From a virus (taxonomy: Duplodnaviria; Heunggongvirae; Uroviricota; Caudoviricetes): a stretch of DNA of 12,824 bases. The notes below the pieces were generated by a model. It saw only the letters and a program-made list of their open reading frames with translations, did no database searches and was not told the origin of the DNA. Shown one piece after another: positions 228 to 12,824 of this stretch (position 1 is the first letter of the stretch; each line of letters starts with the position of its first letter). The stretch lies in IMG/VR virus record IMGVR_UViG_2740892209_000012. One strand, 5' to 3'. Both the position numbers and the translations under genes were made by a program.

Positions 228-1478
228 GTGATGACCGGAATCAAAATTATGCGCAGAGCACTTAACAAACTGAGTGATACACAGCTAAGGAAAATCAACG
301 GCACACCCGCCCAAAAAACAGCCTTTCTTAATGACGGTGGAAACCTGAGCGTCAGGCATTCAACCAGCGGCCTTTTAACCTGGTATTTCACCTACAGGGC
401 CGGAACGGGAAGGGGAGCACGACCGGAACGGATTAAGCTGGGAAATTATCCTGATCTGAGTCTGAAAGCTGCCAGGGAAAAAGCGGCACAGTGTCGCGCT
501 TGGCTTGCTGAGGGGAAAAATCCACGTCATGAGATGAATTACACCGTACAGAAAGCGTTAAAGCCCGTAACGGTTGGCGATGCGCTTACCTACTGGCTTG
601 AGTCTTACGTAAAGGAAAACCGCGTGGATTATGCCGCCCTGAAAAAGCGCCTTAATAATCACGTAATACAGCACATTGGTGCTATGCCGCTGGATAAATG
701 CGAGCTACGGCACTGGCTGGCCTGTTTTGACCAGGTGGCAAAGCGAACGCCTGTTACTGCCGGATTCTTGCTACAGACGTGCAAACAGGCGCTTAAGTTC
801 TGCCGGAGGCGGCGCTATGCAATCAGCAACGTTCTTGATGATATGAGTGTGGCGGACGTTGGGAAAAAACCGGATATAAGCGAGCGTGTCTTAAGCACCA
901 AAGAACTTGGCGAATTATTGCAGGCACTGGACAAAAAAATATTTTCCCCTTACTACGTCGCACTAATCCGCCTCCTGATTGTTTTCGGATGCCGGACGGT
1001 AGAACTGAGGTTATCGGAGATCAGCGAGTGGGATTTTACCGAAATGCTCTGGACCGTGCCGAAAGAACACAGCAAAACGAAGGTGGCAATATTCCGGCCC
1101 ATACCGGAAGCAATACTGCCGTTCGTCACGCAGCTGGTGGAGCAGAACAGGCACACGGGCTTATTGCTGGGGGAAGTGAAACAGGAAACAAGCGTGTCGC
1201 AGTACGGCAGATTAGCGCACAGGAGGCTAAAACACCCTCACTGGTCACTGCATGACATCCGGCGCACCTTTACAACGATGCTGAACGATTTAGGCGTGGA
1301 TCCTCACGTCGTGGAGCAGCTTACAGGTCATCAGATGCCAGGGATGCAACGAGTCTATAACCATTCCCGTTATCTGGATGCGAAACGTGACGCGCTGGAT
1401 ATGTGGACGGAGCGGTTAGGGATACTGGCGGGAACACATGAAAACGTAACCACATTGCCAATAGCCAGAGAAATATAA
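228..1478 (+). CDS. int: Tyrosine recombinase / integrase, P4-family type
   Basis: 416-codon ORF. N-terminal arm-binding-like pattern (LNDGGNLSVR, WYFTYR, IKLGNYPDLSL..AR) and C-terminal catalytic signature (LHDIRRTF, GH......Y) typical of P4-like integrases. Begins right after the attL core. Start uncertain: GTG 228, ATG 231 or ATG 249. Confidence 0.9.
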   Translation: MMTGIKIMRRALNKLSDTQLRKINGTPAQKTAFLNDGGNLSVRHSTSGLLTWYFTYRAGTGRGARPERIKLGNYPDLSLKAAREKAAQCRAWLAEGKNPRHEMNYTVQKALKPVTVGDALTYWLESYVKENRVDYAALKKRLNNHVIQHIGAMPLDKCELRHWLACFDQVAKRTPVTAGFLLQTCKQALKFCRRRRYAISNVLDDMSVADVGKKPDISERVLSTKELGELLQALDKKIFSPYYVALIRLLIVFGCRTVELRLSEISEWDFTEMLWTVPKEHSKTKVAIFRPIPEAILPFVTQLVEQNRHTGLLLGEVKQETSVSQYGRLAHRRLKHPHWSLHDIRRTFTTMLNDLGVDPHVVEQLTGHQMPGMQRVYNHSRYLDAKRDALDMWTERLGILAGTHENVTTLPIAREI

Positions 1479-1843: not shown

Positions 1844-2032
1844 GTGTTAAGCACAGATCGCTTTATACGTGAAAAAGAATGTCAGCAACTTACAGGCCTG
1901 AGCCGCTCATGTCGGTACCGCCTGGAAAAAGCCGGACAATTCCCATCACGGCGTAAGCTGGGCGGTCGTTCCGTTGGCTGGTCTTTATCCGAAGTTTTGG
2001 CATGGAAGGACAGCTGCGAGGCAGTTCACTAA
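1844..2032 (+). CDS. alpA: AlpA/Vis-family HTH regulator (excision and transcription activator type)
   Basis: 62-aa ORF with GTG start preceded by AAGGGGGA Shine-Dalgarno; FIREKECQQLTGLSRSCRYRLEKAGQFPSRRKLGGRSVGWSLSEVLAW matches the AlpA-type small HTH pattern; position immediately downstream of int as in Gram-negative PICIs. Confidence 0.8.
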   Translation: MLSTDRFIREKECQQLTGLSRSCRYRLEKAGQFPSRRKLGGRSVGWSLSEVLAWKDSCEAVH

Positions 2033-2084: not shown

Positions 2085-3371
2085 ATGAATACTGGATATT
2101 CTCCCGAACAAGGGCGGGGCTTCGTTCGTCCTGAAAAACAGAATCTGCAAAATTTTGCCGAAATTATTCCGGTTATTTCCGGCCTTACTGGCGGGAGTGA
2201 AACCAATATTGTTAACGCCAGAGCGTTGCAGATGTTTGATGATAAAAAGGGAGTAAATTTAACTTACACCCCTGACGGCAATCAGAATATGAGCATTATC
2301 TCTGAGTCAGGTTTCTACAAACTAATAAAAACAAAAAGCGCCCCGTTGCCGGAGCGCCTTTGTGAACAATTAACCTACTGCGCAAAAAATGAATCTGAGC
2401 AGTGGGATTATATCAACCATGTGGAGAAGCGCCACAATTGCCGAATAACGGGCAAAACAAAGGCCACCCGCTACAGTGGCCCCTCGACACAAGCTACACG
2501 TTATCCCCAACGCATGAGCATTGCCAACAATGCCACATTTGCGGCTGGTGGGCAATGCAATCAGTCTGGTTCAGTTCGTTGCCATACCTGCAATGAGCGC
2601 TTTTCCCTGTACTCTTTAAGGAATTGCTCAAGGGCAAAAGCACATGGCGCGAATCTTTCTGATTCATGCTCTATCTTTCTGCGCCGTCTTTTCCGTGCCG
2701 GTGATAATGTTTTGGTCAATTCTTTATCGGTCATTGTGTTGTCCTGCATAGCAATGCGCCGTAGTTACTCACACCACGGCGCTGGTGATGGTTACTCCTG
2801 CTCTTTGGCCTTGCGGCGCTGGCGGCGTTTGATTTCGCCGCGCATGGCTGCGTTTATAAACTGTCCCGTGCTTTCGCCTTCTTCTTTCACGTTCTCCATG
2901 CCTTCAATAATTTCATGGGCAATACGTGCAGTTACAGATTGTGATTTTGCATTCTTTGGACCCGTTGCCATGTTTAACCCCTCATGTTTTTGGTGTAAGA
3001 CAATATACACGAAAAAAAAATATTTTGAAGGGTTGGCGTGTAAGACACCATTGTTTTACATTGTGTCTTACACCTTATTGATGAAAGGCACAGAAACGAC
3101 GAAACCCCGCACTGTAGGAGCAGTAACGGGGCTTCTAACCACCAACGATAGCAACAGTATCGAGGTAGCTATGAGAAATCATACCACACACCCGAAAGGG
3201 CGGGACTCGCACAACCTGAATAAATACATCTGGCGTTTTATCGCCCTGAGCACGGCACAACCGCGCGTGATTACCATTGAGGCCACCAGCGAACAGGAAG
3301 CACGCCAGCAATCTCCGGCTGGCTGCGTGATGGTATTTGCTGCCCGTATTCGTCAGGGGGTAGGCTTATGA
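2085..3371 (+). CDS. Questionable 428-codon open frame; probably not one gene. Only the N-terminal ~85 codons look protein-like (BRO-N/antirepressor-like ISESGFYKLI motif)
   Basis: No stop for 1287 nt, but the central part is Cys/Ser/Arg/Leu-rich junk-like translation, runs antisense to a well-supported small minus-strand gene (2792-2971), and reads through an AT-rich operator/promoter region (2993-3080). The 3' end coincides with the Icd-like ORF starting at 3171. Confidence 0.2.
   Translation: MNTGYSPEQGRGFVRPEKQNLQNFAEIIPVISGLTGGSETNIVNARALQMFDDKKGVNLTYTPDGNQNMSIISESGFYKLIKTKSAPLPERLCEQLTYCAKNESEQWDYINHVEKRHNCRITGKTKATRYSGPSTQATRYPQRMSIANNATFAAGGQCNQSGSVRCHTCNERFSLYSLRNCSRAKAHGANLSDSCSIFLRRLFRAGDNVLVNSLSVIVLSCIAMRRSYSHHGAGDGYSCSLALRRWRRLISPRMAAFINCPVLSPSSFTFSMPSIISWAIRAVTDCDFAFFGPVAMFNPSCFWCKTIYTKKKYFEGLACKTPLFYIVSYTLLMKGTETTKPRTVGAVTGLLTTNDSNSIEVAMRNHTTHPKGRDSHNLNKYIWRFIALSTAQPRVITIEATSEQEARQQSPAGCVMVFAARIRQGVGL
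2324..2357 (-). terminator. Candidate intrinsic terminator for leftward transcription
   Basis: Stem GCGCCCCG (2338-2345) / CGGAGCGC (2350-2357), loop TTGC; on the minus strand it is followed by TTTTTGTTTTTATT (complement of 2324-2337). Confidence 0.35.
2792..2971 (-). CDS. Small basic hypothetical protein (59 aa), candidate autoregulated regulator
   Basis: Minus-strand ATG at 2971 preceded by GAGGGG Shine-Dalgarno (6-nt spacing); protein-like K/E-rich composition (MATGPKNAKSQSVTARIAHEIIEG...KRRQRRKAKEQE); promoter-like -35 TTCAAA / -10 TATATT upstream with a GTGTAAGACA operator-like repeat overlapping the -10/start region. Confidence 0.5.
   Translation of the reverse strand: MATGPKNAKSQSVTARIAHEIIEGMENVKEEGESTGQFINAAMRGEIKRRQRRKAKEQE
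2993..3073. promoter_or_regulatory. Divergent promoter/operator region with three GTGTAAGACA half-sites
   Basis: GTGTAAGACA at 2993-3002; perfect 11-bp inverted repeat GTGTAAGACAC (3038-3048) / GTGTCTTACAC (3063-3073) with a 14-bp spacer; lies between the minus-strand small gene and the plus-strand Icd-like ORF; -35-like TTTACA at 3055-3060 on the plus strand. Confidence 0.55.
3171..3371 (+). CDS. Icd-like small protein (host cell division inhibitor-like family seen in P1/P4-type immunity regions)
   Basis: ATG 3171 preceded by GAGG (5-nt spacing); 66 aa; the YIWRFIALSTAQPRVITIEATSEQEARQQSPAGCVMVFAARIR pattern resembles recalled Icd-like proteins; stop overlaps the next start (ATGA at 3368-3371). 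Confidence 0.45.
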   Translation: MRNHTTHPKGRDSHNLNKYIWRFIALSTAQPRVITIEATSEQEARQQSPAGCVMVFAARIRQGVGL

Positions 3372-4043: not shown

Positions 4044-4343
4044 ATGAAACTTAAATATTCTGGCTTAACTGCCAGTGGCAAAACTCGCACTAAATTCATG
4101 CGCGGTGATATTTACCGCGACCAGTACGGCGGCACGGTAATGATTAAGGGCGTGGAGGAACGGCGCGTAACCTACCGTCGTGAAGGCTACGAATATGATT
4201 GCGTGATGCCTGTTTATCAGTTCGATCGTGATTTTTCTCTGGTGCAGGCCGTACCGCGTAACGTGCCCACCAGCAGGGAGAAAGCACGCGCCAATATTCA
4301 GGAAATAAAAAAGATGCTTAACGTATTCAGGGGTAAGAAATGA
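4044..4343 (+). CDS. Hypothetical basic protein (99 aa), translationally coupled to the primase gene
   Basis: ATG 4044 with GGAGA Shine-Dalgarno; stop TGA 4341-4343 overlaps the primase ATG 4340 (ATGA). Confidence 0.65.
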   Translation: MKLKYSGLTASGKTRTKFMRGDIYRDQYGGTVMIKGVEERRVTYRREGYEYDCVMPVYQFDRDFSLVQAVPRNVPTSREKARANIQEIKKMLNVFRGKK

Positions 4344-6088
4344 AACTGGCACCGAACGTAAAAAAACAACCACGCGGAATAAAACACAAAGACACAGAGG
4401 TAATTATTTTCGCGGGTAGTGATGCGTGGTCACATGCAAAACAGTGGCAGGAGCAGGACGGCCCCGCATCCGGCGATAATGTGCCGCCTGTGTGGCTTGG
4501 GCCAAATCAGCTTGCCGAACTTGATGCGCTGAAAATTGTTCCGGATGGGAAAAAGCGCGTAAGGCTGTACCAGGCCGGAGAACTGGATTTGGTGGAGACC
4601 AAAAAGATTGGTCAGAAGCTGGCGGCGGCAGATATTCAGGACGCAAATTTTTACCCCGAAGGAATGCACGTCCAGAAGTGTGAAAACTGGCGGCGCTATC
4701 TGAATGCTGAGCGTGAAAATATTGCCGCAGGGCTTACCATGCCGGAGCAGAAAAATACGCAACTGGCACAAATGGCAGACAGTGAGCGCGCGCAGCTGCT
4801 TGCCGAGCGCTTTGATGGCGTTTGTGTGCATCCTGAAAGTGAAATCGTTCACGTATGGCGCGGCGGGGTATGGTGTCCGGTCAGCACAATGGAGCTGAGC
4901 CGCGAAATGGTGGCGATCTATTCAGAGCACAGGGCCACTTTCAGCAAGCGCGTAATCAATAACGCCGTGGAAGCGTTAAAAGTTATTGCCGAACCAATGG
5001 GCGAGCCGTCCGGCTATTTGCTGCCGTTCGCCAATGGTGCGCTTGACCTGAAAACGGGGGAATTTTCCCCGCACACGCCGGAGAACTGGATCACCACGCA
5101 CAACGGCATTGAGTACACGCCACCAGCACCAGGGGAGAACATCCGCGATAACGCGCCAAACTTTCATAAATGGCTTAAGCACGCAGCCGGAAAAGACCCG
5201 CGCAAGATGATGCGTATATGTGCCGCGCTGTACATGATTATGGCGAACCGGTACGACTGGCAGATGTTTATTGAGGCCACCGGAGACGGCGGGAGCGGTA
5301 AAAGTACATTCACACACATAGCCAGCCTTCTGGCAGGGAAACAGAACACGGTAAGCGCTGAAATGACATCGCTTGATGATGCTGGTGGACGTGCGCAGGT
5401 TGTCGGGAGTCGTCTTATCGTCCTGGCTGACCAGCCGAAATATACAGGCGAAGGAACGGGCATCAAGAAAATCACGGGCGGTGACCCCGTGGAAATTAAC
5501 CCGAAATACGAAAAGCGTTTCACGGCTGTAATCAGGGCGGTGGTGCTGGCGACCAACAATAACCCGATGATATTCACCGAACGGGCCGGAGGTGTGGCAC
5601 GTCGTCGCGTGATTTTCCGTTTCGACAATATCGTCAGTGAGGCCGAAAAAGACAGGGAGCTACCGGAAAAGATCGCGGCTGAAATCCCTGTCATTATCCG
5701 CCGATTGCTGGCGAACTTTACCGACCCTGAGAAGGCACGGGCTTTACTACTGGAACAGCGTGACGGTGATGAAGCACTGGCAATAAAGCAACAGACGGAT
5801 CCGGTTATTGAGTTTTGCCAGTTCCTGAATTTTCTGGAGGAAGCGCGCGGCCTGATGATGGGGGGCGGTGGCGATTCAGTGAAGTACACGACCAGGAACA
5901 GCCTTTACCGCGTCTATCTGGCGTTTATGGCATACGCAGGCAGGAGCAAACCGCTAAACGTAAATGACTTTGGAAAGGCTATGAAGCCTGCCGCAAAAGT
6001 TTACGGACATGAATATATTACGCGGAAAGTTAAGGGGGTAACGCAGACTAACGCAATAACAACAGACGAGTGCGACGCGTTTTTATAA
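4340..6088 (+). CDS. Primase/replication initiator with D5_N-like and SF3-helicase P-loop domains (P4 alpha C-terminal type; PICI pri-rep-like)
   Basis: 582-aa ORF; FANGALDLKTGEF motif (D5_N-like), Walker A GDGGSGKST, Walker B-like RLIVLADQ; immediately followed by an iteron array. Confidence 0.9.
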   Translation: MKLAPNVKKQPRGIKHKDTEVIIFAGSDAWSHAKQWQEQDGPASGDNVPPVWLGPNQLAELDALKIVPDGKKRVRLYQAGELDLVETKKIGQKLAAADIQDANFYPEGMHVQKCENWRRYLNAERENIAAGLTMPEQKNTQLAQMADSERAQLLAERFDGVCVHPESEIVHVWRGGVWCPVSTMELSREMVAIYSEHRATFSKRVINNAVEALKVIAEPMGEPSGYLLPFANGALDLKTGEFSPHTPENWITTHNGIEYTPPAPGENIRDNAPNFHKWLKHAAGKDPRKMMRICAALYMIMANRYDWQMFIEATGDGGSGKSTFTHIASLLAGKQNTVSAEMTSLDDAGGRAQVVGSRLIVLADQPKYTGEGTGIKKITGGDPVEINPKYEKRFTAVIRAVVLATNNNPMIFTERAGGVARRRVIFRFDNIVSEAEKDRELPEKIAAEIPVIIRRLLANFTDPEKARALLLEQRDGDEALAIKQQTDPVIEFCQFLNFLEEARGLMMGGGGDSVKYTTRNSLYRVYLAFMAYAGRSKPLNVNDFGKAMKPAAKVYGHEYITRKVKGVTQTNAITTDECDAFL

Positions 6089-6102
6089 TTTTTTGTAATT
6101 GC

Positions 6103-6328
6103 TGTCTACCCTGTCTACCTGAGTAAAGAAAAATACATTTAATTCAGTGCATTAAGTTAGGTAGATAGCCTTTTTTTACTGTCTACCCACTATCTACCCT
6201 CTCTACCTGATTTTACCTGAATCAGACAGGGAGGTAGACACGGGGTAGATAGTGGATAAAAGCACTCTACCCCGCTGAAAGCCGCGCCATTACTGGCATG
6301 AGGGCCACTAAGGTAGATAAGGTAGACA
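6103..6328. repeat. Iteron-type replication origin
   Basis: About 11 copies of TGTCTACC / TATCTACC / CTCTACC and the inverse GGTAGACA / GGTAGATA in both orientations (e.g. 6103-6110, 6112-6119, 6160-6168, 6180-6188, 6191-6199, 6233-6240, 6244-6252, 6312-6319, 6321-6328) around an AT-rich spacer, directly downstream of the replication protein gene. Confidence 0.7.
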
Positions 6329-6376
6329 AGGGGAGGCACAACTCAAAACTTTTTAAACGAGGGGGTAAAAATAAAT

Positions 6377-6538
6377 ATGCACACTTCAGGGAAATTTAAT
6401 AAATCACTCAAAAAACGCAGAGACAGAACAGAACCGAAATATCGCGCGTTAGACATGACAGAGCACGCTTTAAAGGTGGCAATCAGAACGATAGACCGCC
6501 ACGCGGGGGAGGATACGCGAAAGCACATCCCGAACTGA
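6377..6538 (+). CDS. Possible small basic protein (53 aa), below the ORF-track size cutoff
   Basis: ATG 6377 preceded by GAGGGGG; a second 34-codon ORF (6550-6654) ends in an ATGA overlap with the ssb start. Both are speculative. Confidence 0.3.
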   Translation: MHTSGKFNKSLKKRRDRTEPKYRALDMTEHALKVAIRTIDRHAGEDTRKHIPN

Positions 6539-6650
6539 TAAGCGCATTCATGACCACGACGGCGGCAAATTTTGCCACGCTGACAGAGCGGGAGATTGCC
6601 GAAGCGGAACAGGTAACAACCATCAACGTTAAAACCGGAGAGGTGGAATC

Positions 6651-7073
6651 ATGACAGCACAGATAGCAGCTTACGGGCGGCTGGTGGACGACCCGCAGGT
6701 AAAACAGACCAGCAAGGGCACACCGATGACGCTGGCGCGTATGGCGGTCCCCCTTCCGTGCAGCCAGGCAGATGACGGAACGGCGACGATGTGGTTATCC
6801 GTCCTGGCATTTGGCAGACAGGCCGAAGCACTGGAAAGGCACCGCAAGGGTGAACTCCTGAGCGTGGCGGGTAACATGCAGATCAGCCAGTCGACTGGGC
6901 AGAACGGAGAAACGCGGCAGGGCTGGCAGGTTATCGCAGACAGTGTAATCAGTGCGCGAACGGCGCGACTGGGCGGCAAAAAAGGTCAACAGGGCCAGGC
7001 TACTGACGCGCTGAACAGGGCAAAACAACAGGCGGGGAATGATGATCCGTACGGGGATAACATACCGTTTTAA
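6651..7073 (+). CDS. Single-stranded DNA-binding protein-like (short SSB with acidic C-terminal tail)
   Basis: 140 aa; OB-fold-like N-terminus (GRLVDDPQVKQTSKG...) and C-terminal DDPYGDNIPF resembling the SSB acidic tail ending in IPF; followed by a strong terminator. Confidence 0.75.
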   Translation: MTAQIAAYGRLVDDPQVKQTSKGTPMTLARMAVPLPCSQADDGTATMWLSVLAFGRQAEALERHRKGELLSVAGNMQISQSTGQNGETRQGWQVIADSVISARTARLGGKKGQQGQATDALNRAKQQAGNDDPYGDNIPF

Positions 7074-7080
7074 GCGACGA

Positions 7081-7102
7081 GAGACAGAAGCCGGAGCAAT
7101 CC
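7081..7102 (+). terminator. Rho-independent terminator after ssb
   Basis: GCCGGA-GCAA-TCCGGC hairpin followed by TTTTTT. Confidence 0.7.
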
Positions 7103-7160
7103 GGCTTTTTTACGGGTCCTCCTGGCGGGGTGGGCCTGAACACGGGGCGGGAAGCGCGGA
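7103..7160 (+). other. Degenerate cos-like sequence (pseudo-cosQ/cosN), paralogous to the 9530-9606 region
   Basis: ACGGGTCCTCCTGG followed by GGGCGGGAAGCG (8 of 12 matches to cosN) and CGG-AAAAAAGCG; the preceding hairpin is near-identical to the one at 9530-9545. Confidence 0.35.
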
Positions 7161-7286
7161 AAAAAGCGCATTTTTGTGATTTTATCGTCATCATCATCAT
7201 GAGCGTAATTTATTGTTTTTAATTGTTTTGATGCAAAAAAGATGATGGTTGTGGTTAATTTTCGTTCGACATCTTTGCAGGCAGAT

Positions 7287-7327
7287 AAAAAAGCCCGATA
7301 AGGTCAGAGGTGGCTTATCGGGCTTTT
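7287..7327. terminator. Bidirectional-looking stem-loop (10-bp stem) flanked by A-run and T-run
   Basis: GCCCGATAAG (7293-7302) / CTTATCGGGC (7314-7323), with AAAAAA upstream and TTTT downstream. Confidence 0.45.
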
Positions 7328-7422
7328 GCATATGAGGCTTTTTGGTGCACTGACACACATGAGCGGGATCATCATTTCATAATTTGCAACACAACTCAAT
7401 ATCATTGCACAAAACGCAATCC

Positions 7423-7453
7423 TGATTATAATCAGAGCTGGATGAACATCCAG
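7423..7453. promoter_or_regulatory. Two adjacent palindromes upstream of the capsid operon (candidate operator/activator sites)
   Basis: Perfect palindrome TGATTATAATCA (7423-7434) and CTGGATG-AA-CATCCAG (7438-7453), about 35 bp upstream of the ATG at 7489. Confidence 0.35.
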
Positions 7454-7488
7454 TTATGATTTTTTAAGTCGAAGAGGAATTTCTTACT

Positions 7489-7695
7489 ATGGCTGAAGAG
7501 AAAAAAGGCGGTGTTTCGGTGTACATAAGCCCCGAAATCGTGGAGGTGCTCAAGCAGCGCCACAAAAAAAACTATGAGGCTGGCGTGGCGGCTGGACTGG
7601 ATCCGCTGATGACGCCGGAGCCGTCGATAGGTTCACTTGTACGCTCTTATTTACTTGCGGCGCTTGGGATGCATAAAAATTATGGGGGTGAATAA
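7489..7695 (+). CDS. Small hypothetical protein (68 aa), possibly ribbon-helix-helix-like, first gene of the capsid operon
   Basis: ATG 7489 with AGAGGA upstream; GVSVYISPEIVEVLKQ resembles an RHH beta-strand/helix start; stop overlaps the MCP start (TAATG). Confidence 0.55.
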   Translation: MAEEKKGGVSVYISPEIVEVLKQRHKKNYEAGVAAGLDPLMTPEPSIGSLVRSYLLAALGMHKNYGGE

Positions 7696-8750
7696 TGGCA
7701 GGCAAAGCAACGGCACTTAACACTAACCAGCTTTTCATGTACCTGAATCGCGGGGATATTGCGGATTTTAAATTCAGCCCTCTGTTTACTACGCTGTTTT
7801 TCCCGAACGTGGCGACATTCAGCACGCAAAACATCATGCTGGATACCCTGGACATTGAAGAAGTCACCATGTCGGCGTTTTGTTCGCCTATGGTGGGTAG
7901 CCAGGTTCAGCGCGATAAAGGGTACGAAACCAGCACGATTAAACCTGGCTACATGAAGCCAAAGCACGAAATCGATCCAACGAAAACCATCATGCGCATG
8001 GCTGGAGAAGATCCGGCACAGCTTAACGACCCTACCTATCGCCGTATGCGCCTGATTACTGGCAATATGCGCCGCCAGATAAACGCCATAAAAGCGCGCG
8101 TGGAATGGCTGGCGGTAAATGCGGTAACGACCGGAAAAAACATCATTGAGGGCGAAGGCATAGAGCGCTATGAAATCGACTGGAAGATACCGGAAAAAAA
8201 CATCATAGAGCAGGCCGACGGGAAAAAATGGTCAGAGCAGGACAAAGAAACCCACGATCCAATCTATGATATCGAACTATACGCCGATCAGGCTGGTTGC
8301 CCCGCAAACGTCATGATTATGGGCGCTGAGGTATGGCGAACGTTACGCAGCTTTAAAAAATTCCGTGAGCTGTACGATCTTTCCCGTGGTTCAGAATCCG
8401 CCGCCGAACTGGCCTGTAAAAACCTGGGCGAAGTGGTGAGCTTTAAAGGCTATCTTGGTGATCTGGCCCTTATCGTCTATTCCGGCAAATACACTGACAG
8501 CGATGGTACCGAAAAATATTTCCTTGAGCCTGATTTGCTGGTCCTGGGCAACACCAACAATAAAGGGCTGGTGGCCTATGGTGCGATAATGGATCAGGAA
8601 GCGGTAAGAACGGGCGCAACACAAAACATGTTTTACCCGAAAAACTGGATTGAGGACGGCGATCCGGCGATTGAGTACGTGCAGACGCACAGCGCACCGC
8701 AGCCGGTTCCGGCAGATATTCGCAAATTTGTTACCGTCAAAATTGGTTAA
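7695..8750 (+). CDS. Major capsid protein, lambda gpE-like
   Basis: 351 aa; multiple blocks align with recalled lambda E (FKFSPLF..LFF, PGYMKPKHE, EDPAQLNDPTYRRMR, WSEQDK..HDP, RSFK, LVLGNT..GL..YG, YPKNW...GDPA, SAP). Confidence 0.9.
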   Translation: MAGKATALNTNQLFMYLNRGDIADFKFSPLFTTLFFPNVATFSTQNIMLDTLDIEEVTMSAFCSPMVGSQVQRDKGYETSTIKPGYMKPKHEIDPTKTIMRMAGEDPAQLNDPTYRRMRLITGNMRRQINAIKARVEWLAVNAVTTGKNIIEGEGIERYEIDWKIPEKNIIEQADGKKWSEQDKETHDPIYDIELYADQAGCPANVMIMGAEVWRTLRSFKKFRELYDLSRGSESAAELACKNLGEVVSFKGYLGDLALIVYSGKYTDSDGTEKYFLEPDLLVLGNTNNKGLVAYGAIMDQEAVRTGATQNMFYPKNWIEDGDPAIEYVQTHSAPQPVPADIRKFVTVKIG

Positions 8751-8761
8751 CGGGGGATTCT

Positions 8762-9097
8762 ATGGACACTCCATACATTGAGTTATTTGCAGGCAGTCAG
8801 CAGGTCGCCACGACGCTGGTACATTTTGCCGCTGATGCTGGCGTTATTCAGGAATTTACCCCGCTGATGCTGGCGGACAATGGCGAGTTTAAGCCGTGGG
8901 ATGGTAAGGAATCTGGCAAGGCTGTTTATCTGACCTCGTACCCTGTGGACACGTCAAAGCAGAAATCAGCACAGTGTTACAAGACGGGGATATTCAATAT
9001 TGCCGCCGTTAACTGGCCTGAGAGCGTCGACACCGATGCGAAAAAATGCGCCGCCTTTGCGGGTTCCGGCGTATCCGTTCAGCCGCTGGCCCGATAA
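8762..9097 (+). CDS. Head decoration protein, lambda gpD-like
   Basis: 111 aa; C-terminal YKTGIFNIAAVNWPESVDTDAKKCAAFAGSGVSVQ resembles lambda D ([34 protein letters not shown]); GGGGGA Shine-Dalgarno; lies downstream of the E-like gene (order reversed relative to lambda). Confidence 0.8.
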   Translation: MDTPYIELFAGSQQVATTLVHFAADAGVIQEFTPLMLADNGEFKPWDGKESGKAVYLTSYPVDTSKQKSAQCYKTGIFNIAAVNWPESVDTDAKKCAAFAGSGVSVQPLAR

Positions 9098-9109: not shown

Positions 9110-9523
9110 ATGGCAACGAATGAAAGCATCATGACGCTACCGCTGGCGAGTAAATTTAAAGCCGAAGCGCGGGCAATGGCTGACAGAGGTTTATCAACCT
9201 ATGAGGCCGTATATCAACTAAACAAACTGGAAGAGCAGGACAAGCCGCGCGCTGATGCGATTATGGCGCTTCATGAGCATAAAGACTATCAGCCGCTGTT
9301 GCGTGCAATGGCAAACGTGCCTTGTATCGATGTTGGTACGGCTAAAAGCATCCTTAGCATGACCATAGAGCAGGAGCGCCCAAAGGTTGCACCAGAGCTT
9401 ACCGCAGCCTTTGAAAACTTTATGGACATGCACAGCCCGCAAGCCGTATCAGCTGGCATGGCATACGATGGCAGAAACCAGGGCGATGACGGCGACATCG
9501 ATCGCATACTGAAAACCATCTGA
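9110..9523 (+). CDS. Hypothetical protein (137 aa), last gene of the capsid operon
   Basis: ATG 9110 with AGGGGGAA Shine-Dalgarno; protein-like composition; followed by a strong terminator. No family recognised. Confidence 0.7.
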   Translation: MATNESIMTLPLASKFKAEARAMADRGLSTYEAVYQLNKLEEQDKPRADAIMALHEHKDYQPLLRAMANVPCIDVGTAKSILSMTIEQERPKVAPELTAAFENFMDMHSPQAVSAGMAYDGRNQGDDGDIDRILKTI

Positions 9524-9529
9524 GACAAG

Positions 9530-9552
9530 GCCGGAGAAATCCGGCTTTTTTT
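9530..9552 (+). terminator. Rho-independent terminator immediately upstream of cos
   Basis: GCCGGA-GAAA-TCCGGC hairpin followed by TTTTTTT. Confidence 0.7.
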
Positions 9553-9640
9553 ACGGGTCCTTTCCGGCATATGGACCCGTTACGGGGCGGCGACCTCGCG
9601 GTTTTTCGCTATTTATGAGCCTTTTCAGGGGGGTGGTGGT
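9553..9640 (+). other. Lambda-type cohesive end site (cosQ-cosN-proximal cosB), forward orientation
   Basis: ACGGGTCCTTTCCGG (cosQ-like, matches recalled lambda right end), GTTACG then GGGCGGCGACCT (9585-9596, identical to the lambda 12-nt cohesive end), then CGCGGTTTTTCGCTATTTATGA (near-identical to the lambda left end start); located about 135 bp upstream of the Nu1-like gene. Confidence 0.8.
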
Positions 9641-9729
9641 GGTTTTGTTGTTTGCTCTATCTTTATGAATGAAAAGGGAAAGATGCAAACAATACACCAA
9701 CCTGAAGCAGTAATTAAGTTGGTGTATTA

Positions 9730-10272
9730 ATGAAATCGCACCTGATGAACAAAAAAAACATGGCGAAAAGCTGCCGTGTAAGTGCGACAGCGTTCGACAA
9801 GTGGGGAGTGACTCCCGTTGAACGTAAAGGCCGTGAGGCGTTTTACGATGTTGCCAGCGTGATAGACAATAGGGTTAACAATGCAATTAGCCAGCTTACA
9901 AACGACAAAGGCGATATTGATGATGATGAACTCTTACGAGTCAGGATCAGATTACTGACAGCACAGGCGGAGGCGCAGGAACTTAAAAACGAGCGCGATC
10001 GCGGTGACGTGATTGATACTGAGTTTTGCCTGTACGCGCTTTCAAAGCTGGCGAGTCAGATTTCATCAATCATGGACAGCCTCCCGCTTACTATGCAAAG
10101 GAGCTTCCCACAGATTACCCCCGCCATGCTGGATAGGCTTAAAAGGGAAGTGGTTAAAGCCTGTAATGCCAGTGCCAGAGTTGCCGACAACCTCCCACAG
10201 ATACTGGCTGATTACTTGAAAGAAACAACCGGAAACGTACCGGAAAAGTTGCTACAGAAGAAAGGCGAGTAA
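9730..10272 (+). CDS. Terminase small subunit, lambda Nu1-like
   Basis: 180 aa; LTAQAEAQELKNERDRGDVIDTEFCLYALSKLASQISSIMDSLPLTMQRSFPQ aligns with recalled lambda Nu1 (LTRAQADAQELKNARDSAEVVETAFCTFVLSRIAGEIASILDGLPLSVQRRFPE); the N-terminal NKK... region matches the Nu1 N-terminus; start may be ATG 9730 or ATG 9745. Confidence 0.85.
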   Translation: MKSHLMNKKNMAKSCRVSATAFDKWGVTPVERKGREAFYDVASVIDNRVNNAISQLTNDKGDIDDDELLRVRIRLLTAQAEAQELKNERDRGDVIDTEFCLYALSKLASQISSIMDSLPLTMQRSFPQITPAMLDRLKREVVKACNASARVADNLPQILADYLKETTGNVPEKLLQKKGE

Positions 10273-10274
10273 CA

Positions 10275-10500
10275 GACGCGCAATTATTGAACAAAACTGA
10301 GAAACGACATGAAAGCGTCATAAATCGCCATTTTAGATGATTACCGTGTCGTTTCTTTTTATTGTGTATCTATTTAAAAACAAATAGTTATGTTCGAGAA
10401 GTACCGACATGCTTTTTCCAGAAAAATTTTCATAAACAGATAAAAACCGCGAGGTCGCCGCCCCGTAACGGGCCATAATTCCAGGAAGGACCCGACGACA
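10275..10500 (-). other. Second lambda-type cos site in inverted orientation with extended lambda-like cosB
   Basis: The reverse complement reads cosQ-like CGGGTCCTTCCTGG, then GTTACG-GGGCGGCGACCT-CGCGGTTTTT (cosN on plus strand at 10452-10463), then TTTATGAAAATTTTT, CATAACTATTTGTTTTTAAATAGATA, AAAAAGAAACGACACGG and GTCGTTTCTCAGTTTTG, mirroring recalled lambda cosB blocks (R3/R2/R1 region). It shares a 36-bp inverted repeat with cos1 (9571-9606 vs 10442-10477, 1 mismatch). Confidence 0.7.
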
Positions 10501-10977: not shown

Positions 10978-11225
10978 ACAATCCCCCATTGGGGGAGGCT
11001 GGGCGGCCTGCTGTGGGCTTTTCCACCATTGGTGGAAAGGCGCACATCTGGATCATCATTACGGTGATCAAGGGTATGTAAAACCCACCAGCCTGATTGA
11101 CATTTAACCGGAAAAAAGCCAGGTAGCCCCGTTATGGGGATCCCCATATCGACATTAACGCCCCTCATGAATTGGCGCGCTTCCCCCTGGAAAGATGACC
11201 CGCCTGTATATTTCTTGTGTCTATT

Positions 11226-11282
11226 TGTTCCACGTTGTTTCATACAGTGCAACGATCGGTGTAGTTAATGGTGTAGTCAATT
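11226..11282. repeat. attR: right copy of attachment-site direct repeat
   Basis: 11247-11282 matches 192-227 (35 of 36); the upstream block 11226-11238 matches 171-183. Confidence 0.75.
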
Positions 11283-11363: not shown

Positions 11364-12824
11364 TTATTCATCTTTCGGCGCAGAATGCTGGCGACCAAAA
11401 ATCACCTCCATCCGCGCACCGCCCAGCATGCTCTCTCCGGCGACGATTTTACCCTCATATTGCTCGGTGATTTCGCGGGCTACCGCCAGCCCCACACCTT
11501 GCCCAGGGCGTAAAGTATCAACCCGTTGACCACGGTCGAAAATGACCTCTCGCTTGCTTAATGGAATACCGGGGCCATCATCCTCGACCACAATATAGAG
11601 ATGCTCGTCGGTTTGCCTTGCAGAAATTTCGACAAACTCGAGGCAATATTTACAGGCGTTATCCAGCACGTTGCCCATCACTTCGACAAAATCGTTCTGC
11701 TCACCAACAAAGCTGATTTCTGGCGAGATATCGAGAGAGATATTGACCCCTTTGCGTTGATACACTTTGTTCAGCGCCGAGGTGAGATTGTCCAACAGTG
11801 GCGCGACCGGATGCAGCTCGCGGCTAAGCAATGTCCCGCCGCGCATACTGGCACGATGCAGGTAGTAGCCAATTTGCTGTGAAATGCGGCTGATTTGCTC
11901 CAGCATTACCGGCTCAGCATCACTGACGCTCATCTTCTCACTACGCAGAGAACGCAGCGTACTTTGCAGCACCGCCAGTGGCGTTTTCAGACTATGGGTC
12001 AGGTCGGTGAGCGTTGTACGATATTTGTCGTAACGTTCGCGTTCACTTTTTAACAGTCGGTTCAGGTTTCGTACCAGACTGGTCAGTTCTCGCGTTGTGG
12101 CTGGATTGAGCAATTCACGGTTATGTTCTTCCAGTTCGCGGACTTCTTTTGCCAGGGCTTCGATGGGGCGTAAACTCCACCAGGCGGCGACCCACAGCAG
12201 CGGGATCACTAACAGCAGATTGGCTGAGAGCACATAGATAAACCAGCTCCAGACCATATAGGAACTTTTTAGCTCCACCGGAATGGTATCCACCACCACA
12301 ATGGTTAACTTTGGCATCCGCGATGTTGCCGGGTAGACGTTTACCGCCACCGAGTGGGTCATCTCCGCGTCGTCATCATCTTCCCGCACTTCCTGCAACT
12401 GTTGCTGTATCGAATGATCTCCACTCAGCAAGAGGCTGGTATCGTTAACATCCGCTTCAATTTCATGAAAACCATTCGATTTCAGCCAGTCAGGCTGGAT
12501 CATCTTCATCAGCCAGGGCACGTCACGTTGCGCCCATAAAAGCTGCCCGTTCTCATCATAAATTAGTGTCATCGTGGGGCTTTGCTTGTCGATATTTTCG
12601 GGTAACTCGACATGCAACTTATTGTTTTCCCACTTCGCAAGGGTATAGAACAGATTGCTCTCGCCACGTAACAGCCGAAACGTGGTTTTATCGAAACTGA
12701 CGCTATAACCGATCAGCGCAACCATTCCGTAGGCAAGCGAAAGCACCAATACTACTGCTGCCGTTGCTAACAGAAAACGTACCCGCAGCGAGAGCGGGAA
12801 AAAAAGATGCAGTAATTTTTTCAT
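11364..12824 (-). CDS. phoQ: Sensor histidine kinase PhoQ (PhoP/PhoQ two-component system), complete
   Basis: 486-aa product matching recalled E. coli PhoQ essentially throughout: N-terminal transmembrane segment, periplasmic acidic patch [11 protein letters not shown], second transmembrane segment, H-box [15 protein letters not shown]-binding boxes DDGPGIP and [12 protein letters not shown]; start codon at the window edge (12822-12824). Confidence 0.97.

Follow-up and report, generated by a model that had tools for sequence, protein, structure and literature searches.

Just 3' of ssb, the window (the whole 12,824-nucleotide stretch that we analysed) carries what is apparently an intact cos site of a different lambda-like phage group, one that includes Shiga-toxin phages: positions 7114-7276 appear to form a complete cassette of cosQ, cosN and cosB such as is predicted for lambdoid phages with a DUF1441/PHROG 141 small terminase subunit (TerS). 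On the strength of the sequence comparisons described below, we consider this post-ssb site to be probably an accessory cos on which the terminase of a second lineage of helpers acts directly. If it is indeed the intact cos of a different phage group, then the satellite may be carried by helpers of more than one kind.

The bulk of the window is a PICI of approximately 11 kb that adjoins phoQ and matches EcCICFT073 with 95% identity and 88% coverage (megablast, complete E. coli genomes). It is a variant of the roxA-phoQ island, of which the CFT073 version at that locus is EcCICFT073, the model Gram-negative PICI. We took an EcCICFT073-type PICI to be an element of about 10-15 kb with att repeats, an integrase, AlpA, a primase-type replication module and cos sites, without a full set of virion genes; the window contains att-like repeats, an integrase, AlpA, a D5_N primase, an SSB and cos sites, and its head genes are limited to one E-like and one D-like gene (Table 1). 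The att-like sequences are direct repeats of 76 nt (80% identity; 152-227 and 11207-11282) that flank the island on the roxA side and at the 3' end of phoQ, and are presumably attL and attR. Iteron-like repeats of CTGTCTACCCTGTCTACCTGA just 3' of the primase gene (6102-6122, 6190-6210 and, inverted, 6307-6328) probably mark the island's replication origin. Repeats of the ACAACG type with a 10-bp period (1506-1550) lie 3' of the integrase gene and have inverted matches in both att-like repeats (157-183 and 11212-11242); these may be arm-type binding sites for the recombinase or an excisionase. A 428-aa ORF (2085-3371) without a Pfam or PADLOC match falls in a region that differs among island variants; its PHROGs matches are to an Ant/BRO-like segment near the N-terminus and, strongly, to a 'transcriptional repressor' at residues 339-426.

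Table 1. Coordinates of the post-ssb cos site and of other features in the window
Feature	Position	Strand	Basis or remark
Tyrosine integrase	228-1478		Pfam scan of long ORFs
AlpA	1844-2032		
D5_N/DUF5906 primase-helicase	4340-6088		Pfam scan
ssb, last replication-module gene	6651-7073	+	Pfam SSB PF00436, E = 1.1e-13; annotated as single-stranded DNA-binding protein in homologous islands
Intrinsic terminator hairpin AAGCCGGAGCAATCCGGCTT + T-run, abutting cosQ	7088-7111	+	Folding: -15.4 kcal/mol, z = -4.3
Post-ssb cosQ, GGGTCCT core within ACGGGTCCT	7114-7120	+	Exact match to lambda cosQ heptamer
Post-ssb cosN, CG/GGGCGGGAAGCG/CG (slashes, predicted nicks); predicted 12-nt cohesive end 7145-7156	7143-7158	+	Nicks inferred by analogy with lambda
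Post-ssb cosB, phage type	7159-7276	+	87-90% identity to DNA 5' of DUF1441 terS in Stx2 and VT1-Sakai phages
CATCAT x3, R3-like	7189-7200		Bases 45-56 from predicted left end
A/T-rich stretch	7205-7237		75-90% A+T
Inverted ATGATG, R2-like	7239-7247		
CATCTT, R1-like	7270-7275		
Second hairpin/terminator AAAAAAGCCCGATAAGG...CTTATCGGGCTTTT, right slot edge	7289-7326	+	Inverted repeat I18; -25.6 kcal/mol, z = -4.6
Lambda E major capsid protein homologue	7695-8750		Pfam scan
Lambda D decoration protein homologue	8762-9097		Pfam scan
cos1-position site, lambda-type: cosQ 9555-9561, cosN 9583-9598 GGGCGGCGACCT, satellite-specific cosB GGGGGGTGGTGGTGG	9555-9650	+	z = 34 vs lambda
Nu1-type small terminase homologue, full-length	9730-10272	+	Pfam Phage_Nu1 E = 2e-23; PHROG 57 E = 3e-53
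cos2-position site, inverted lambda-type cos: cosQ 10487-10493, cosN 10450-10465	10423-10494	-	Inverted repeat I1, 72 nt, 82% complementary
phoQ	11364-12824	-	Pfam scan

By local alignment, the interval 7108-7276 matches the cos of an Stx2 prophage over 171 bp (z = 82) and that of VT1-Sakai over 172 bp (z = 78). A phage collection returned nine Stx1/Stx2 phage records at 86.5-90.1% identity over 169-171 bp, with Stx2d-, Stx2a- and Stx1-converting phages (VT1-Sakai included) as the best matches, and sensitive blastn with 7000-7500 and 7105-7280 as queries placed the same interval at 87-90% in hundreds of STEC genomes. There, the match lies in unannotated DNA between lysis genes on one side and, on the other, a gene for a 'DUF1441 family protein' that is followed by genes for a large terminase, a portal and a ClpP-protease/capsid fusion; annotated prophages have the site between the lysis genes and terS, as is the case for lambda cos. 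The DUF1441 protein corresponds to Pfam PF07278 (E = 4e-48) and to PHROG 141, 'terminase small subunit' (E = 6e-66), which has only a distant relationship to the Nu1 family (PHROG 57). When IMG/VR was scanned with the pattern GGGTCCTCCNGGNGGGGTGG, approximately 120 loci were retrieved, and at about 95 of these a DUF1441 terS follows the motif in the same orientation, approximately 150-330 bp further 3'. The heads of DUF1441-TerS phages, among them VT1-Sakai and several Stx2a/Stx2d-converting phages, are Gifsy-2-like, with protease and coat genes fused.

The limits of this homology are instructive: it spans cosQ to the end of cosB without any coding sequence, stops at 7276/7277 (some 60 bp short of the start of the phage terS) and gives way to sequence that is shared with CFT073, so the cassette is exactly cosQ to the cosB end. 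At homologous sequence in phages mEp213 and LLS, specialists have inferred a cohesive end of 5'-GGGCGGCGCGCT (PMC12315714). Bearing in mind that our literature searches returned no experimentally mapped ends for the closest matching phages, we infer the phage cos from its position and its homology to lambda.

The cosN of the post-ssb site, which can be aligned with those of the Stx2 and VT1-Sakai prophages, has the left half GGGCGG and the flanking CG dinucleotides by which a lambda-like cosN is recognised (PMC4669245). Its cosQ starts 31 bp before the predicted first cohesive-end base (7145), compared with 30 bp both in lambda and in the cos1-position site of the window. The cosN is equal to that of lambda at cohesive-end bases 1-6 and at both CG dinucleotides, and differs only at bases 7-12; in lambda-like phages, cosQ is highly conserved and selection acts upon cosQ, the nick-flanking CG and cohesive-end bases 1-6, whereas bases 7-12 are naturally variable (N15, phiD326, Gifsy-1) and can be changed without measurable effect on cleavage (PMC4669245). 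The description of this cosN as degenerate or decayed, given in an earlier sequence-only reading, is therefore not one that we share. The central stretch is variable in the DUF1441-TerS phage family too, both in sequence and in length (GCGG, GTCGG, GCGGG, GAGCGT, CGCGCT): the interval from GGGCGG to CGCGG is 4, 5 or 6 nt in related phages (L002, L009, L010, L003 and others), so overhang length or nick register must differ among near relatives. Nevertheless, two features set the window's cosN apart from its phage counterparts. The G at 7153 is changed to A, at a position that is invariant in eight distinct aligned phage copies, which brings the two-fold rotational symmetry down to 6/16 (lambda and the Stx prophage, 10/16; the commoner PICI variant, 8/16), the functional weight of the central cosN positions being reported as low (PMC4669245). 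In addition, the variant GGGCGGGA[AG]GCG occurs in PICIs only and never beside a phage terS (18/18 loci).

The cosB that follows repeats, in its putative TerS sites, the order of complex lambda-like cosB sites, namely R3, a bend, an inverted R2 and then R1; for comparison with its R3-like blocks, R3 is at 50-65 in lambda and at 48-60 in N15 (PMC9026076). The CATCAT, ATGATG and CATCTT blocks are invariant in the eight distinct phage copies of this cosB type, and the window has kept them all. Across the whole site, it has retained every phage-invariant position except the one in cosN and another near 7263; the invariant blocks that are kept comprise the entire cosQ-cosN spacer, CACGGGGCGGG, GCGCGGAAAAA, GCGCATTTTTGTGATTTTATCGTCATCATCATCAT, AAAAAGATGATG and GTTCGACATCTTT. 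A search of 7150-7290, A/T-rich spacer included, for the IHF consensus WATCAANNNNTTR in strict and relaxed form found none.

The cassette is enclosed by two hairpins. The left one, at 7088-7111, has a 10-bp stem followed by a U-run, as is expected of an intrinsic terminator; it was absent from the list produced by a consensus terminator/promoter scan (which showed no enrichment), probably because its stem runs into the T-run. CFT073 has the identical hairpin, GCCGGAGCAATCCGGCTTTTTT, at the same position, after a perC gene, and then directly the next terminator without a cos; it is at this second terminator (7289-7326) that identity between the window and CFT073 picks up again. The left hairpin is common to satellites that have three different cos types in the post-ssb slot. 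More generally, all of the satellite cos copies that we examined across IMG/VR are fused to a terminator hairpin and T-run, two bases before GGGTCCT, and at least four different hairpins are used; this fusion to every copy examined marks a shared design rather than a duplication. An Rfam scan of 6900-7700 gave sub-threshold chance matches only. The next genes 3' of the site are a 68-aa ORF and then the capsid-protein homologue, and a small terminase gene is not directly 3'. Two minus-strand ORFs (7000-7200 and 7197-7358) overlap the site; neither is called in any annotation and both were set aside as genes, the DNA being homologous to non-coding phage cos.

In some other PICIs, the position after ssb contains other types of cos. 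At the ssb-hairpin junction, islands L066, L017 and L023 have a type-2 cos with GGCACCATCACCACC repeats, 93% identical over 168 bp to the cos found in a second group of phages; between this group and the first, TerS identity is 78%. In L034 and L077, the same junction leads into a type-3 cos with GGCGGCGGCAGC that is 91-94% identical over approximately 200 bp to a third phage group, with a TerS only 37-42% identical. It is common for a PICI to have two or three cos sites, and in all such islands that we examined the post-ssb site points the same way as the one at the cos1 position. The cos type of the window shows hardly any change from island to island, even where the primase differs or gives way to a RepA helicase and where the ssb alleles vary, and the islands that share it encode, after cos1, either the CFT073-type protein or a Nu1-type TerS. 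One of these, L127 (strain 2014C-3338; 5699-7096), is at the same phoQ locus and has an identical post-ssb cos with a helicase of the RepA family where the window has its primase, which points to shuffling of modules around a conserved cos slot; a second match to the site is found elsewhere in the same genome. Where PICIs have the window's cos type at the cos1 position, there is no TerS or Rpp gene beside it, which fits a site that would need no satellite specificity factor. We consider it possible, and propose only tentatively, that E. coli PICIs hold a dedicated, exchangeable post-ssb 'cos slot' that is filled with lambdoid cassettes of at least three cosB types, and that the island is thus directly packaged by several helper families, Stx phages among them.

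Two further observations concern the protein side of such a fit. In L017, a 629-aa homologue of the Stx-type fused ClpP-protease/capsid (1035-2924) lies between co-oriented cos sites at 418 and 2955 that differ in cosB type, so that the capsid-gene module, like the cos sites, appears to match the helper's head type. In some PICIs a DUF1441 TerS-like protein, 65-67% identical to a phage TerS, is encoded directly after a cos (L034, 9803-10273, Pfam E = 1e-35; also L019, L070, L077, L088 and L104); for DUF1441-TerS phages, this protein could act as the satellite's TerS or as an analogue of Rpp.

A copy of the window's site at 95% identity or above is present in 156 of 5,426 complete E. coli genomes (about 3%), and the phage-type site, at 80-90% identity, in approximately 600 of them; scans of contigs from one genome per species gave zero matches among the representatives, whether the hairpin-cosQ junction or the window's cos type (type 1) was sought. 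Among 20 related PICI copies, nucleotide diversity is 0.010 in cosB and 0.024 in cosQ-cosN, as against 0.076 at third-codon positions of ssb and 0.117 in the next ORF. Such low diversity is compatible with constraint; recent spread could also give it, and in the terminator that adjoins the cos it is even lower. Because the history of the modules is mosaic, we dropped this comparison as a proof of constraint. Point changes in cosQ were seen in three of the 20 copies, which indicates that the site is not maintained everywhere.

How, then, might the site work? In the mechanism that we propose, a DUF1441-TerS helper would replicate in a cell that holds the induced, concatemeric island; the helper's own TerS would bind the phage-like cosB repeats (7187-7276) and thereby place TerL to nick cosN at approximately 7144/7145 and 7156/7157. 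Packaging would proceed to the right, as it does from cos1, and a later cosQ/cosN would bring it to a stop once the head has been filled. For the post-ssb site, the island would not have to encode a specificity factor. Helpers of the lambda/phi80/21 type would be served by the lambda-type cos1, which comes with a cosB and a Nu1-like TerS of its own, and the two kinds of site together would widen the helper range of the island. With regard to that TerS, the homologue encoded at 9730-10272, between both lambda-type cos sites, shares 35% identity with lambda Nu1 across 179 aa, the C-terminal part included; at this position CFT073 has an unrelated 144-aa HTH protein, so the window's variant of the island may supply its own TerS and not an Rpp-type adaptor. 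For the direct reading of the post-ssb site by a second helper's terminase speak the precise capture of the cassette, its retained constrained positions and repeat blocks, the three types found in the slot, co-orientation with cos1 and persistence across backbones. There is also precedent, in that PICI cos sites are functional (PMC6092414) and a helper-embedded PICI and its helper's cos share 258 bp at 90% identity (PMC10111431). Against it stand the 7153 change with the symmetry reduced to 6/16, the restriction of the cosN variant to PICIs, the cosQ changes in 3/20 copies and the missing IHF consensus.

An earlier reading of the DNA saw in 7081-7160 a degenerate third copy of the island's own terminator-cos1 module, left by a past duplication, and much of what it described is there: the hairpin, the cosQ and the cosN-like element are all present, and a cos-like site does follow a terminator at the boundary between replication genes (primase, ssb) and capsid-packaging genes. 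The likeness of terminator and cosQ to the second site is likewise real, amounting to 41 columns (7080-7120 against 9522-9562; score 58, compared with 17.9 +/- 2.4 for dinucleotide shuffles, z = 16), so that the partner interval named in that reading, 9530-9567, was right as to the match and a few bases off in its position. This partner is the cos1-position site, which corresponds in place to EcCICFT073 cos1 (PMC6092414, PMC6739421). What the two share is GAGACA, the hairpin, the T-run and ACGGGTCCT, and beyond 7121 only the 9-mer ACGGGGCGG; the latter and cosQ are common to all lambda-like cos sites. The similarity thus comes close to being confined to the terminator hairpin, an outcome that the sequence-only reading had itself named as telling against a duplication: it covers hairpin plus cosQ and ends there, with 7121-7290 against 9563-9731 at z = 0.4, as compared with z = 82 for the phage cos. 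An alignment with the inverted site at 10423-10494, suggested in the same reading, is at chance level (z = 1.2). Nor is the post-ssb cosB related to that of cos1, which is of the GGTGGTGGTGG type, and the presence of the same hairpin in CFT073 with no cos behind it implies that this hairpin did not arrive through duplication of cos1. We regard an origin by duplication as very improbable.

A more serious competitor is that the cassette is a non-functional passenger, gained by recombination with a PICI or prophage (for example through shared cosQ/cosN-left sequence) and lying as neutral DNA between terminators, not yet decayed. To this can be reconciled the PICI-only cosN variant, the change at a phage-invariant cosN position with its loss of symmetry, the cosQ substitutions in 3/20 copies and a type-2 copy, in L017, that reads CG/AGGCGG at the nick-proximal base; moreover, the CFT073 island is functional although its slot contains no cos, and low diversity that extends to the adjacent terminator is expected after recent spread. 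We nonetheless judge a passenger to be unlikely, given that the capture runs precisely from cosQ to the cosB end with no phage coding sequence, that three different phage-matching cos types occupy one slot, that neither a constrained cos position nor a cosB repeat block has been lost in the window, and that the copy persists on many mosaic PICI backbones in about 3% of complete E. coli genomes. It is also conceivable that the hairpin pair insulates modules while cosQ and cosN provide an extra signal for the end of packaging to terminases that have started at cos1, without initiation at the site itself. The two strong hairpins that flank the cassette and its co-orientation with cos1 would suit such a role, as would the properties of lambda-like termination, which needs cosQ and cosN and not cosB, by terminases that show little cosN specificity (PMC4669245). 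However, this leaves unexplained a 118-bp phage-type cosB with its repeat blocks kept at approximately 90% identity, and CFT073 has both terminators without the cassette. In addition, a run from cos1 to the post-ssb site would produce cohesive ends that are mismatched at 4/12 bases (GGGCGGCGACCT versus GGGCGGGAAGCG), and two such mismatches already cost about fourfold in yield (PMC4669245); we therefore hold a role in termination or insulation alone to be quite improbable. The same arithmetic bears on the accessory cos that we favour: since termination is cosB-independent and little cosN-specific (PMC4669245), a run begun at one site could end at the other, and with extra co-oriented cos sites termination at a non-matching one could leave ends mismatched at 4/12 bases. 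In EcCICFT073, deletion of cos2 raised transfer (PMC6092414).

It is useful to set the post-ssb site against the systems that it most resembles. EcCICFT073 belongs to the same island family and has satellite versions of lambda-like cosQ and cosN that are fused to a terminator and hijack the helper terminase (PMC6092414, PMC6739421); the window, too, has sites at the cos1 and cos2 positions, whereas CFT073 has these two only and a post-ssb slot without a cos. Its cos1 has a satellite-specific cosB that is read by an Rpp-TerS complex (PMC6739421), unlike the post-ssb site, which has a phage-like cosB of the DUF1441/PHROG 141 TerS family and no adjoining Rpp or TerS gene. To the cos of DUF1441-TerS phages (VT1-Sakai, Stx2a/Stx2d; relatives mEp460, mEp213 and LLS) the site is 87-90% identical over approximately 170 bp, in the same order of cosQ, cosN, CATCAT, A/T-rich spacer and inverted repeat; it differs from them in that no terS/terL lies behind it, in that the terminator hairpin replaces the phage ATGATAAC-CATTATCA palindrome in front, and in a central cosN of GAAG where these phages have GCGG, GTCGG or GCGGG. 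With lambda cos (PMC4669245, PMC9026076) it shares the cosQ heptamer, a CG-flanked 12-bp cosN with the same left half and putative cosB repeats, one of them inverted; on the other hand, cohesive-end bases 7-12 are GAAGCG in the window and CGACCT in lambda, the R sequences are unrelated to lambda R3/R2/R1, and an IHF consensus is missing. A further parallel is the helper-embedded PICI 11capE (PMC10111431), which similarly has no matching terS of its own and a cos segment of a few hundred bp that is about 90% identical to that of its lambdoid helper; in that element, however, the segment is the only presumed cos and occupies the usual position, while the window's site is an additional one, in a separate slot, beside two lambda-type sites.

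That PICIs have cos sites, that EcCICFT073 has two of them and that cos segments can resemble those of helpers is already known. Full-text literature searches found no description of a third cos site in a separate slot, of a PICI cosB copied from a different TerS family, or of at least three interchangeable phage-matched cos types in one slot; nor did such searches, on the DUF1441 terminase, on PICI cos with Stx phages or multiple helpers and on the cosN string, turn up the post-ssb site itself. Why some PICIs have several cos sites is a question that was left open by the authors of PMC6739421, and an exchangeable cos slot, if true, would answer it; such a slot would also imply that Stx phages, when induced, mobilise these islands, and that the islands possibly interfere with that induction. 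If the post-ssb site is functional, the helper range of a satellite would be set partly by interchangeable cis-acting cassettes, and not only by proteins such as Rpp, which would also matter to the engineering of delivery particles from PICIs or cosmids. One would then predict that Shiga-toxin phages act as helpers, or are the targets, of a common family of islands, with consequences for how virulence genes spread upon Stx phage induction.
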